From an uncultured Pseudomonadota bacterium (GTDB lineage: Bacteria; Pseudomonadota; Alphaproteobacteria; Acetobacterales; Acetobacteraceae), in NCBI GenBank assembly GCA_963764465.1, contig CAVXSO010000004.1, positions 110,494 to 174,493 of the forward strand: DNA of 64,000 nt, written 5' to 3'. This document shows positions 29,907 to 32,084 of this stretch, one piece after another; the stretch's first letter is position 1; every line of letters begins with the position of its first letter. A program made the position numbers and the translations under genes. The notes under the pieces were generated by a model. It made no database searches. It saw only the letters and a program-made list of their open reading frames with translations, and was not told the DNA's origin.

Positions 29907-32084
29907 GTGGACGGCGAAAAGCTCGGCAAATATGAAATCCACGGCATCCTTGGCAAAGGGGCGATGGGCACCGTCTACGATGCCCGCGACCCTGTCATCG
30001 ATCGCCGCGTCGCCATCAAGACCGCCTCGCGCCCCGATGCCAGCGATGCCGAGGCCGCGGATGAGTTCGCGCGCTTCAAGCGCGAGGCGCAGGCCGCCGG
30101 CCGGCTGACCCATCCGAACATCGTCGGCATCTTCGATTACGGCGAGACCGACAAGCTCGCCTACATCGTGATGGAGTTCATCGACGGCCGCTCGCTCAAG
30201 GCGCTGCTCGACGCCAACGAGCGCCTGCCGCCGGCGGAGATCGTGCGCATCATGGAGGGGCTGCTCGCCGGCCTCGGCTACAGCCACGAGCGCGGCGTCG
30301 TGCATCGCGACATCAAGCCCGCAAATATCATGCTGACGCGCGACGGCACGGTGAAGATCGCCGATTTCGGCATCGCCCGCATCGAGAGCAGCAGCATGAC
30401 GCAGGCGGGCACGATCATGGGCACGCCCGCGTACATGTCGCCCGAGCAGTTCATGGGCCAGACCGTGGACCTGCGCACGGACATCTATTCCGCAGGCGTG
30501 GTCCTCTACCAGATGCTCACCGGCGAGCGGCCGTTCGACGGCAGCATGACGGCGATCATGCACAAGGTGCTGAACACGGAGCCGCCGCGCCCGTCCGAGC
30601 TTTCCGTGACCGCGCCGCGCGGCTTCGACGCGGTGGTCGCGCGCGCGATGGCGAAGCGCCCCGACGCGCGCTTCGCTTCCGCCACCGCCTTCGCCGCCGA
30701 TCTGCGCGCCGCGCTCGGCGGTGGTGCGCCGGCGGCCAGCGACGCGGCCGAGGCAACGTTGGTGATGAGCGGCGGCAGTGGCGGAGGAATCTCGCTCGGC
30801 ACCGGCCCGCTCACGCCGCCGGTGCCGCCGCCGCAATCGGCTCCCGCTCCAACCCCGAAGCCTTCCGGCGGCGGCAAGATGCTGCTGGTCGGTGGCGTCG
30901 TGGTCCTCGTCGTCGCGGCGGCGGTGGGCGGATATTTCCTGCTCGGCGGAGGTGCCCAGAAGCAGGCGCCAGTTGCCCCACCGACGCCCGCTGCGGCACC
31001 GGGAACCCCAGCGCCCGCGCCCGCCCCAGCGCCCGCGCCTACTCCCGTGCCAGCGCCTACTCCCGTGCCAGCACCGACGCCCGCGCCTGCTCCCGCGCCA
31101 GCGCAAGCACCGGCACCCGCGCCAGCACCCGCGCCAGCTCCGGCACCCGCGCCGACTCCGGCGCCCGTACCCATGCCGGCTCCAACCCCAACAACAACCC
31201 CGGCGCCGGCTCCCACGCCCGCACCAGTGCCGACGCCGACCCCAGCGCCGACACCAACACCGGCTCCGACGCCGACCCCGGCACCGACCCCAGCGCCGAC
31301 CCCGGCACCGGCCCCATCACCCGCGCCCGATACCGCTGCAATTAGCCAGCGCCTCGCAACCGTGCTCGCGCCAATCCCCTGCGCGATGCTCGATGGCGAG
31401 GTCGGCCCCGGCGGCAATGTCCAGGTCGGCGGCCTGCTGGGCGAGGCGCAGCGCTCCGCCTTGCGCCAGGCGTTGGCCAGTGCCGGCGCGCCCGGTGCGA
31501 CATTGGGGGTCGATGCCTTCGCCGGCCCCTATTGCCCGGTGCTGGACGCGGTTCATGCGGCGGTACCCGCCTTCGGCATTACGCCCGCGCTCGGGCTGTC
31601 GCTGGCCGGTGCATCCGGCCGCCTGCTGAAGGACGCGCATGTCATCCCGCGTCTCATGATGCCCGATTATCCCGCCTACCTGCAGGTGGACTATATCGCC
31701 AACGACGGAAGCCTCGCGCACCTGCACCCCTCCGGCGACGAGAAGATGCTGGACATCACGGCACCCGGCGGGGTGGTGAGCCATCGTCACGTAACTGCGG
31801 CCAGTGCCGCGCAGGTGATCCCGGCGGGGGCCACGGTCGCGATCGGCGATCCGGCGTTCTGCGGCTGCGATGCCTCGACCGTCGGCTGGACCGTGGCACC
31901 GCCCTATGGCACCGACATGATCCTCGCCATCGCCTCCTCCGCGCCGCTGTTCACGGCGCCGCGCCCGGCGAACGAGACCCTCGCCGCCTATCTCGCGGCC
32001 CTGCGCCAGGCAATCCAGGACGCAGAGGCCAAGGGTGTGAAAGTGGCGGTGCGCGCCATCCTGGTGCGGACGGCGGCGCAGTAG
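29907..32084 (+). CDS. Transmembrane Hanks-type Ser/Thr protein kinase with a Pro/Ala/Thr linker and an extracytoplasmic C-terminal domain (DUF4384-like)
   Basis: Kinase motifs [33 protein letters not shown] and [12 protein letters not shown] helix [25 protein letters not shown]-terminal domain ...[22 protein letters not shown].... GTG 29907 is chosen as start because the track ORF (29712) overlaps the CHAT gene. Confidence 0.88.
30966..31330 (+). repeat. Low-complexity (PAPAPTP)n coding repeat in the kinase linker, including an exact 18-bp tandem duplication (31035-31052 / 31053-31070)
   Basis: About 120 codons are almost exclusively Pro/Ala/Thr/Val. gcgcctactcccgtgcca occurs twice in tandem. 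Confidence 0.85.

Follow-up and report, generated by a model that had tools for sequence, protein, structure and literature searches.

A Hanks-type kinase beside an Acetobacteraceae type VI secretion cluster as a candidate for the role of PpkA

Type VI secretion system (T6SS) control by a Hanks-type kinase, a PP2C phosphatase and an FHA protein is already known, and the locus described here raises the question of where the kinase is to be found when a T6SS cluster encodes the other partners of this switch but no kinase. The stretch analysed (the window) comprises 64,000 nucleotides of an uncultured Acetobacteraceae bacterium (contig CAVXSO010000004.1, positions 110,494 to 174,493 of the forward strand). 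Its T6SS is complete, and the cluster carries the FHA protein TagH with the residues of a phosphothreonine (pThr) pocket, the PP2C phosphatase PppA and TagF, with the kinase absent, as the first-pass annotation had stated and as the Pfam content of the cluster bears out. A Hanks-type kinase is encoded nearby, at the end of an operon for two-partner secretion (TPS) proteins and a caspase-like TPR-CHAT protein. On comparative sequence evidence we consider it probable, with some reserve, that this is the Ser/Thr kinase of the threonine-phosphorylation switch of this T6SS, doing the job of PpkA as a member of a different lineage and from a position just outside the core operons.

The kinase and its putative partners are:
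29907–32084, plus strand: Hanks-type Ser/Thr kinase, 725 aa (Pfam Pkinase, family alignment, motifs, transmembrane helix, AlphaFold2 model, T6SS synteny)
47347–48081, minus strand: PppA, PP2C phosphatase, 244 aa, proposed antagonist of the kinase (Pfam PP2C_2 and PP2C, L071 gene call)
48078–48653, minus strand: TagF, T6SS repressor (Pfam TagF_N, 116.6 bits; TIGR03373)
52189–53604, minus strand: TssL, long form with OmpA domain (Pfam DotU and OmpA)
55458–57071, minus strand: TagH (Fha), FHA domain (Pfam FHA and T6SS_FHA_C; TIGR03354)

The kinase and the switch partners

Genes were picked in the window, which has about 70% G+C, by third-position GC together with Pfam and NCBIfam scans. The open reading frame at 29712–32084 (plus strand) matches PF00069 (Pkinase) with 181.7 bits (E 2.3e-53). 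Although the frame opens at 29712, the likely start is the GTG at 29907, because it follows the CHAT stop at 29848 by 58 nt and because all 19 aligned homologs start within about three residues of it. All catalytic motifs are intact (VAIK35, HRDIKPAN133, DFG153 and GTPAYMSPE172) and invariant across 20 homologs. The kinase domain spans about residues 7–260 and is predicted to be cytoplasmic; it is followed by a single predicted transmembrane helix (a hydrophobic segment at about residues 325–346), a Pro/Ala/Thr-rich linker of about 130 aa, and a DUF4384-like C-terminal domain of about 250 aa, predicted to be periplasmic, with two cysteines that are invariant in the family alignment and a conserved W-x-V-x-P-P-Y-G-T-D-M motif. 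The gene is shown to encode an intact Hanks kinase, which is predicted to cross the membrane once, with the N-terminus inside, and to have a folded domain in the periplasm. With the topology as predicted, this is the layout of PpkA-type kinases, which have an N-terminal kinase, one transmembrane helix and a C-terminal periplasmic domain.

No second kinase was found in the window by Pfam scans of all plausible genes, and a six-frame tblastn search of the window with four kinase domains as queries returned chance-level matches elsewhere (E ≥ 0.68), so that the earlier claim of a single kinase in 64 kb holds. NCBIfam contains no PpkA-specific model, and the kinase gives sub-threshold matches to PknB-type models. 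A sequence search of the PDB returned PknB, PknA, PknE, StkP and similar kinases only, and no PpkA structure. Looking up the exact kinase sequence gave no record, and for Hcp the matches were short metagenome contigs only.

Within the vgrG-to-pppA operon, which had been annotated as having overlapping or abutting stop and start codons, the start of pppA indeed overlaps the stop of tagF (translational coupling), and the PppA translation shows motifs of the PP2C metal-binding type. TssL begins with MSDNPFGEPDDSERT15VIRP, in which Thr15 is placed like T14 of Agrobacterium tumefaciens TssL, whose phosphorylation site lies in the context DNPSSWQDLPpT14VVEI (PMC3953482); Thr15 is a candidate phospho-acceptor. 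TagH retains R30 and S46, the pThr-binding residues whose mutation in A. tumefaciens Fha abolishes secretion (PMC3953482), and is a candidate reader and/or substrate of the phosphorylation.

These partners also bear on whether the T6SS needs a kinase at all. TagH could be a phosphorylation-independent scaffold, as reported for Vibrio cholerae, with TagF and PppA acting by contact or PppA being a relic, and the kinase would then be a general envelope-stress kinase with many substrates. T6SSs with an FHA protein but without PpkA and PppA do exist (PMC10482370), TagF is reported to repress by direct binding to Fha, independently of phosphorylation (PMC5995506), and the kinase domain is of a generic PknB-like kind. 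However, a conserved phosphatase implies a phospho-substrate, and PppA has both its metal-binding-type motifs and its coupling to tagF; the pThr-binding residues are kept in TagH; and the rearrangement-resistant linkage of the kinase to T6SS genes and pppA, described below, would be unexpected for a general stress kinase. We regard a kinase-independent T6SS as improbable here.

Linkage to T6SS and CHAT genes across genomes

Thousands of proteins of 600–780 aa with the architecture of the kinase came up in a protein search; their named sources were mostly Acetobacteraceae or Rhodospirillales. For the collection of loci, one genome per species was scanned, and the query alignment was limited to the periplasmic domain so as to avoid generic kinase matches. 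The scan yielded 65 loci, nearly all of them from Acetobacteraceae (genera Acidocella, Acidiphilium, Falsiroseomonas, Limobrevibacterium, Roseomonas, Neoroseomonas and Acidisphaera) and one from a metagenome-assembled genome of Burkholderiaceae. The loci were annotated by tblastn with the window proteins, a procedure that conserved neighbours unrelated to those proteins would escape, and many contigs were short. Three more gene contexts, labelled by Pfam, were taken from a separate contig look-up (L153, L154 and L155).

At least two T6SS core genes lie within 10 kb of the kinase in 24 of the 42 loci with at least 8 kb of downstream sequence (57%). From cluster and genome sizes we estimate that a T6SS cluster takes up roughly 1% of such genomes and that a random gene would have two or more core genes within 10 kb in about 1% of cases, and the enrichment near the kinase family is very large by this comparison. 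Conserved linkage to T6SS genes across genomes, a trait by which a PpkA may be recognised, is thus found in this family, and the proposal of the first-pass annotation that the kinase is the missing PpkA gains comparative support from it: the co-occurrence on which that proposal was to be judged is strong, and the junctions are varied. CHAT lies directly upstream of the kinase in 36 of the 46 loci with enough upstream sequence (78%), which supports the coupling to CHAT that the first-pass annotation had suggested. TPS genes vary more from one kinase locus to the next. Among the 39 loci with both flanks, 17 have CHAT and T6SS genes, 14 have CHAT only, five have T6SS genes only and three have neither.

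The genes around the kinase in the window are:
17786–19624, plus strand: TpsB outer-membrane transporter, ShlB/FhaC type with POTRA (Pfam ShlB, 67.2 bits; Omp85; POTRA_2)
19638–26745, plus strand: TpsA-like exoprotein, about 2370 aa, with TPS secretion domain (88.5 bits; TIGR01901)
26747–29848, plus strand: TPR-CHAT caspase-like protein, 1033 aa (Pfam CHAT, 155.5 bits, residues 699–1013; TPR_12)
32278–32910, minus strand: OmpA-like peptidoglycan-binding periplasmic protein (Pfam OmpA, 79 bits; Sec signal)
32991–34526, minus strand: SAM methyltransferase with MethyTransf_Reg domain (Pfam)
34523–43787, minus strand: T6SS operon tssA-tssB-tssC-tssC-tagJ-tssE-tssF-tssG (Pfam)
43821–47250, plus strand: clpV (tssH) and hcp (Pfam)
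48657–60023, minus strand: vgrG operon with vgrG, DUF6931, PAAR, tagH, tssJ, tssK, tssL and tssM (Pfam)
57996–60023, minus strand: VgrG (Pfam)

As annotated before, the kinase closes the TPS-CHAT operon, which consists of four co-directional, tightly spaced plus-strand genes (TpsB, TpsA, TPR-CHAT, kinase). Its position had been given as about 2.4 kb from the T6SS block. This holds for the distance to tssG (pppA lies at 15 kb), but not for the end of the block. The start of the methyltransferase (34526) overlaps the stop of tssG (translational coupling), which places it in the tssA-tssG operon, and this operon runs past tssG through the methyltransferase to the OmpA-like gene, whose convergent end is about 194 bp from the kinase stop. 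Neither a terminator nor a promoter consensus was found at this convergence, in a scan that is weak at 70% GC. Downstream of the kinase family, no neighbour is more constant than the OmpA-like gene, which is present in most loci. The methyltransferase occupies the same position after TssG in L154 (15340–16854) and in about ten other loci; we know of no role for it in T6SS. On the far side of the cluster, a DUF6931 gene and a small PAAR gene lie between vgrG and tagH (57082–57986, minus strand); the PAAR reading frame as listed is over-extended, its real start probably being near 57372.

Across genomes, the kinase is joined to T6SS genes by at least six types of junction. A window-like junction, in which the OmpA-like gene and in some cases the methyltransferase lead to tssG, occurs in about 19 loci. 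Elsewhere the kinase is followed by hcp-clpV-tssA (L009, L016, L155), by OmpA and then tssL-tssM (L007, L008), by OmpA and then tagH-tssJKLM (L049), by tagF-tssL-tssM (L020; the shorter locus L038 ends with kinase, OmpA and tagF) or by vgrG-tagH (L013). In L016, from Falsiroseomonas, CHAT and the kinase lie between a vgrG-tagH-tssJ operon and a clpV-hcp operon, without TPS genes, so that the pair is embedded in the cluster. L155 shows the clpV-hcp side of this arrangement, with TPS-CHAT-kinase followed by hcp, clpV, tssA, tssB, tssC, tssC, impE, tssE and tssF. Five loci keep the T6SS linkage without CHAT (L003, L012, L052, L057 and L154); in L154 the kinase is followed by two OmpA genes, the methyltransferase, tssG, tssF, tssE, impE and tssC.

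Kinase lineages, links to pppA and the weighing of the assignment

A neighbour-joining tree of 95 kinase domains from all collected loci unites the family of the window kinase in one clade, with T6SS-linked members scattered among unlinked ones. The nearest outgroup among the sampled kinases is encoded on a Caballeronia plasmid (54% identity in the kinase domain), where it adjoins a PP2C gene and tagF-tssM-tssL-tssK-tagH. Mesorhizobium-type ppkA and an Azospirillum kinase fall on a distant branch. The C-terminal domains of the window kinase and Mesorhizobium ppkA are unrelated (hhalign probability 0.4%), and these sequence comparisons show that the window kinase and the single rhizobial ppkA compared, the Mesorhizobium gene defined by synteny, are not orthologs. 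According to the literature, it is architecture more than sequence that PpkA homologs have in common, with 26% identity between Acidovorax citrulli and Pseudomonas aeruginosa. The phylogenetic check proposed by the first-pass annotation came out mixed: the position outside the rhizobial ppkA clade speaks against a PpkA, whereas the T6SS-adjacent outgroup from Caballeronia and the homology of the sensor domain to that of the Azospirillum kinase speak for one.

This Azospirillum kinase is itself part of a T6SS operon. On plasmid AZO_p3 of Azospirillum lipoferum 4B, the order is tssL-tssM-tagF-vgrG-DUF4123-PAAR-tagH-kinase, and the kinase (WP_014249741.1, 757 aa) contains Pkinase and DUF4384 (45.1 bits) domains. 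Over 218 columns, and thus along the whole domain, its C-terminal part aligns as a homolog of the window family's (hhalign 99.5%, E 1.7e-22). What looked like a kinase gene paired with a PP2C gene and sharing this domain, on a Burkholderia stagnalis plasmid (H2), was not counted, T6SS genes being absent within about 20 kb.

The kinase family is also linked to pppA. In two loci (L011, L034), a TpsA-CHAT-kinase-OmpA module is followed by a PP2C gene whose product is 62–67% identical to the window PppA, as high as in the closest PppA relatives found anywhere, and L035 and L054 have similar pairs of kinase module and PP2C. No kinase lies beside pppA in the closest metagenomic pppA relatives with downstream sequence (L072 and L073, both 66% identical), and none follows pppA in the window or in the syntenic plasmid T6SS of Pseudoroseomonas cervicalis; in L074 and L075 (pppA 55–60% identical), the contigs end soon after pppA and the kinase status is unreadable. 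Mesorhizobium-type clusters, with pppA of about 46% identity, have the canonical order tssM-pppA-ppkA. From the closest pppA relatives and Pseudoroseomonas it follows that this type of T6SS is generally without an in-operon ppkA, and synteny identifies the DUF4384-type kinase as its recurrent neighbour.

Two of these loci deserve separate mention. L072 (1–5640, a metagenome contig) carries a TagH-TagF-PppA trio, divergent from TpsB/TPS genes, with T6SS core genes absent from 10 kb downstream, and has the look of a stand-alone regulatory module associated with TPS genes. The P. cervicalis member of the kinase family (L068, 14965–17652), with an OmpA neighbour, is missing as a coding sequence from the distributed gene table; its interpretation as a pseudogene was rejected, as the 895-aa reading frame is intact and the gene table is incomplete.

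A number of observations weigh against assigning the kinase to the T6SS. Of the 39 loci that have both flanks, 17 show no T6SS genes closer than 10 kb to the kinase (14 with CHAT, three without): on a complete Acidocella chromosome (L022) the kinase is followed by housekeeping genes, and in L153 TPS-CHAT-kinase has no T6SS genes in the 10 kb downstream. In P. cervicalis the kinase lies on the same plasmid as the T6SS but at a distance of 57 kb (NZ_CP115852.1; L068, L069). The linkage of the kinase to CHAT (78%) is closer than its linkage to T6SS genes (57%); the kinase could serve the CHAT/TPS module first. The loci come nearly all from one bacterial family and are phylogenetically non-independent. 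PpkA is usually encoded inside the T6SS cluster, next to pppA and fha, whereas the window kinase ends the TPS-CHAT operon; its kinase domain is 34% identical to that of Mesorhizobium ppkA and about 33% to that of the Azospirillum in-operon kinase and belongs to another clade. The N-terminal Thr motif is widespread in long-form TssL, also of other T6SS types, and is compatible with the assignment without being diagnostic. Finally, the kinase search covered the 64-kb window, and a canonical ppkA could lie elsewhere in the genome. Because about a third of the loci have no T6SS nearby, the kinase may not be dedicated to T6SS.

Several of these points are what would be expected if the kinase served the TPS-CHAT module, in TpsA secretion or processing or in passing a CHAT signal to unrelated cytoplasmic targets, and if its nearness to T6SS genes reflected a shared, inherited Acetobacteraceae island. 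The kinase ends the TpsB-TpsA-CHAT-kinase operon, the CHAT link is the tighter of the two and persists in the 14 CHAT-kinase loci without T6SS genes within 10 kb (including L022 and L153), and fusions or pairings of DUF4384 with caspase-like proteases are known (bioRxiv 10.1101/2022.08.17.504292). However, the T6SS link is kept where both CHAT and the TPS genes are missing (L003, L052, L057, L154) and where the TPS genes are missing (L016), and simple inheritance does not predict linkage through at least six junctions. Adjacency to a pppA ortholog, tagF and tagH, and again to tagH in the Azospirillum operon, is specific to the genes of the switch. We consider a primary service to the TPS-CHAT module unlikely, although it deserves more weight than a T6SS without need of a kinase; it is also compatible with the assignment to the T6SS, since CHAT could be the input and the T6SS the output of the same kinase.

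The sensor domain, its candidate inputs and the proposed switch

If the kinase acts on the T6SS, its periplasmic domain would be the place where signals enter. This domain scores 23.8 bits against DUF4384 (PF14326), with a gathering cut-off of 27 bits, and is larger than the 81-position PF14326 model; many members of the family carry a precomputed PF14326 match. A confident AlphaFold2 model of the C-terminal domain, built from a 14-sequence alignment (pLDDT 90, pTM 0.89), contains a beta-sandwich besides a small alpha/beta part and a helix-strand unit at the C-terminus. For this model, Foldseek returned nothing significant in the PDB (best E 5e-3, query-normalised TM-scores ≤ 0.31, generic beta-sandwiches), and an assignment of function by fold failed accordingly. 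The periplasmic domain of P. aeruginosa PpkA is VWA-like, and no VWA match was obtained for the window sensor domain in Pfam or by Foldseek.

In a Falsiroseomonas metagenome-assembled genome (L051, 7589–10609), a 1006-aa protein combines an OmpA domain with the kinase-type C-terminal domain and has no kinase domain, from which the sensor domain would appear to be a mobile envelope module. Judged from its sequence, the architecture fits an envelope or peptidoglycan-associated role for this domain.

The upstream genes of the operon supply further candidates. TpsB and TpsA have the hallmarks of two-partner secretion, a ShlB/FhaC-type transporter with POTRA adjoining an exoprotein with an N-terminal TPS domain. 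In this assembly tpsA has a 1-nt frameshift near 20880–20900, recognised by the switch of frame in third-position GC and by the sequence at the shift: the frame changes by one base between GNGGHVTVL and RTDFAGYAEARGG. It reflects either an assembly error or a pseudogenised exoprotein, and CHAT and kinase are intact downstream. The TPR-CHAT protein begins with a lipoprotein signal peptide with the lipobox LAGC (…ALAGC), and the His and Cys of a predicted caspase-like protease lie in its motifs HFATHA, near residue 861, and LSACNT, near residue 913. Given this lipobox and the Sec signal of the OmpA-like protein, both proteins are predicted to reside in the compartment of the kinase sensor domain.

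Caspase-like proteases also occur near other T6SSs. A Peptidase_C14 WD40-caspase lies immediately upstream of the T6SS in A. lipoferum (L066, 953–4294) and P. cervicalis (L069, 5549–8617), preceded in both by a YMGG glycine-zipper gene, and a caspase-domain gene lies near Mesorhizobium ppkA (L070, 19420–20661). Judging from these gene neighbourhoods, proteases of clan CD may repeatedly accompany T6SSs as accessories in Alphaproteobacteria.

CHAT and kinase could also form an anti-phage or abortive-infection pair, with a PD-T4-6-like defence kinase and a caspase-like executioner, that is near the T6SS by chance. PADLOC models for PD-T4-6 find a strong match in the kinase domain, with up to 375.8 bits, and TPR-CHAT proteases act in type III-E CRISPR defence. 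The PADLOC matches, however, cover chiefly the generic Hanks kinase domain, the longest extending into the low-complexity linker, and CHAT, TpsB and OmpA have no relevant PADLOC matches. A CHAT lipoprotein and a periplasmic accessory domain would be needless for sensing cytoplasmic phage components, CRISPR or other defence genes are not nearby, and the conserved neighbours are T6SS genes. A defence function is very improbable.

Under the T6SS assignment that we favour, the kinase would phosphorylate TssL (at Thr15) and/or TagH, and the FHA domain of TagH would then bind the phosphothreonine and nucleate T6SS assembly. PppA would reverse the phosphorylation, and TagF would repress independently. 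Input would enter through the periplasmic DUF4384-like domain of the kinase, its likely sources being the TPR-CHAT lipoprotein from the same transcript and the peptidoglycan-binding OmpA-like protein encoded convergently, with TpsB/TpsA as a variable outer-surface extension. CHAT, OmpA-like and TPS proteins would together take the role that TagQRST, RtkS or TssW have for PpkA in other bacteria.

A more specific version of this input is that the CHAT protease gates the T6SS. TPR-CHAT would recognise the sensor domain or the Pro-rich tether of the kinase and cleave it upon a surface event reported by TpsA/TpsB or peptidoglycan damage sensed by the OmpA-like protein, which would switch on the kinase and trigger assembly. 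Clan-CD proteases (CHAT here, WD40-caspases in Azospirillum and Pseudoroseomonas) and DUF4384 would then make up a widespread, undescribed T6SS input layer in Alphaproteobacteria. This proposal is drawn by analogy, and we put it forward as a speculation that is rather doubtful. The analogy is with Csx29-Csx30 of type III-E CRISPR-Cas (Craspase), where a TPR-CHAT protease is likewise encoded beside a signalling protein that has a domain of the DUF4384 type. In some Csx30 proteins DUF4384 makes up the C-terminal domain, and Csx29 has Csx30 as its substrate (bioRxiv 10.1101/2022.08.17.504292); in D. ishimotonii, Csx29 cuts Csx30 in a hairpin of the C-terminal domain, this particular Csx30 not being stated to be of the DUF4384 type. 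Craspase, however, acts in the cytoplasm, is triggered by RNA and is connected with a sigma factor, whereas the window encodes a CHAT lipoprotein, and its DUF4384-like domain belongs to the predicted periplasmic part of a kinase. For the CHAT-kinase pair, the Csx29-Csx30 analogy is a lead, not a test.

Comparison with known systems and implications

The arrangement has partial counterparts in several known systems. It shares with the PpkA-PppA-Fha1 pathway of the P. aeruginosa H1-T6SS a membrane-bound Hanks kinase whose sensor domain is periplasmic, a T6SS cluster that encodes a PP2C, an FHA protein and TagF, and envelope accessory proteins placed to feed the kinase, namely an outer-membrane or periplasmic lipoprotein (TagQRST providing the input in P. 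aeruginosa). Unlike in P. aeruginosa, the window kinase is encoded outside the T6SS operons, 15 kb from pppA, its sensor has a DUF4384-like, beta-rich fold without a VWA match, and TagQRST is absent, with TPR-CHAT, OmpA-like and TPS genes in its stead. The A. tumefaciens/rhizobial pathway (PMC3953482) is similar in having two TssC paralogs, TagJ/ImpE, a long-form TssL with OmpA domain, the R30 and S46 residues of Fha and the N-terminal Thr of TssL (T15 in the window, T14 in A. tumefaciens). It differs in that ppkA directly follows pppA in Mesorhizobium (pMESCI01), whereas the window pppA has no follower, and in that TagF and PppA are separate genes in the window.

Lineage-specific envelope proteins beside the kinase are a feature of TssW-PpkA-Fha in A. 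citrulli (PMC12607579) and of RtkS-PpkA in Serratia marcescens (PMC6082577) as well. TssW and RtkS are encoded next to ppkA and act on the periplasmic domain of PpkA, activating or positioning T6SS assembly (PMC12607579, PMC6082577), but the accessory proteins of the window (TPR-CHAT lipoprotein, OmpA-like protein, TpsA/TpsB) are unrelated to them in type. The architecture recurs in the Azospirillum AZO_p3 kinase, which is not known to have been characterised, with a Pkinase domain, a transmembrane helix, a Pro-rich linker, a homologous DUF4384-type periplasmic domain and a clan-CD protease (WD40-caspase) next to the cluster. Here the kinase domains are of different clades at about 33% identity, the protease is a Peptidase_C14 and not a CHAT protein, and the operon lacks a PP2C.

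In the open-access literature searched, we found no description of a protease partner for any PpkA, and a search there for T6SS together with CHAT, DUF4384, TPS-CHAT or Acetobacteraceae PpkA found the present arrangement not described. What appears to be new, as read from the sequences, is the lineage of the kinase, the DUF4384-like sensor, the location of the gene outside the core operons and the constant pairing with a predicted caspase-like protease and an OmpA-like protein.

Further away in the window, upstream of the TPS operon (3856–14587, plus strand), lie an ABC exporter and HlyD pair resembling type I secretion, a Sel1-repeat protein, a large TPR-glycosyltransferase and more glycosyltransferases, which are unrelated to the kinase finding.

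Threonine-phosphorylation control of T6SS is well studied in a few species, and in each of them the question of how PpkA is activated is open; the activator of rhizobial-type PpkA, for example, has been described as unknown (PMC10482370). The locus and its about 60 relatives define a distinct T6SS-linked kinase lineage, whose sensor domain has no solved structural relative, and TPR-CHAT, its constant partner predicted to be exported to the same compartment, and the equally constant peptidoglycan-binding neighbour are concrete candidates for the upstream signal. That DUF4384 recurs next to caspase-like proteases at this locus as well as in type III-E CRISPR systems is a hint that the two may in general be related as substrate and protease or by docking. 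Where a T6SS cluster seems to be without a kinase, one may be encoded just outside its operons, which matters for annotation pipelines that score regulatory content within the cluster only.

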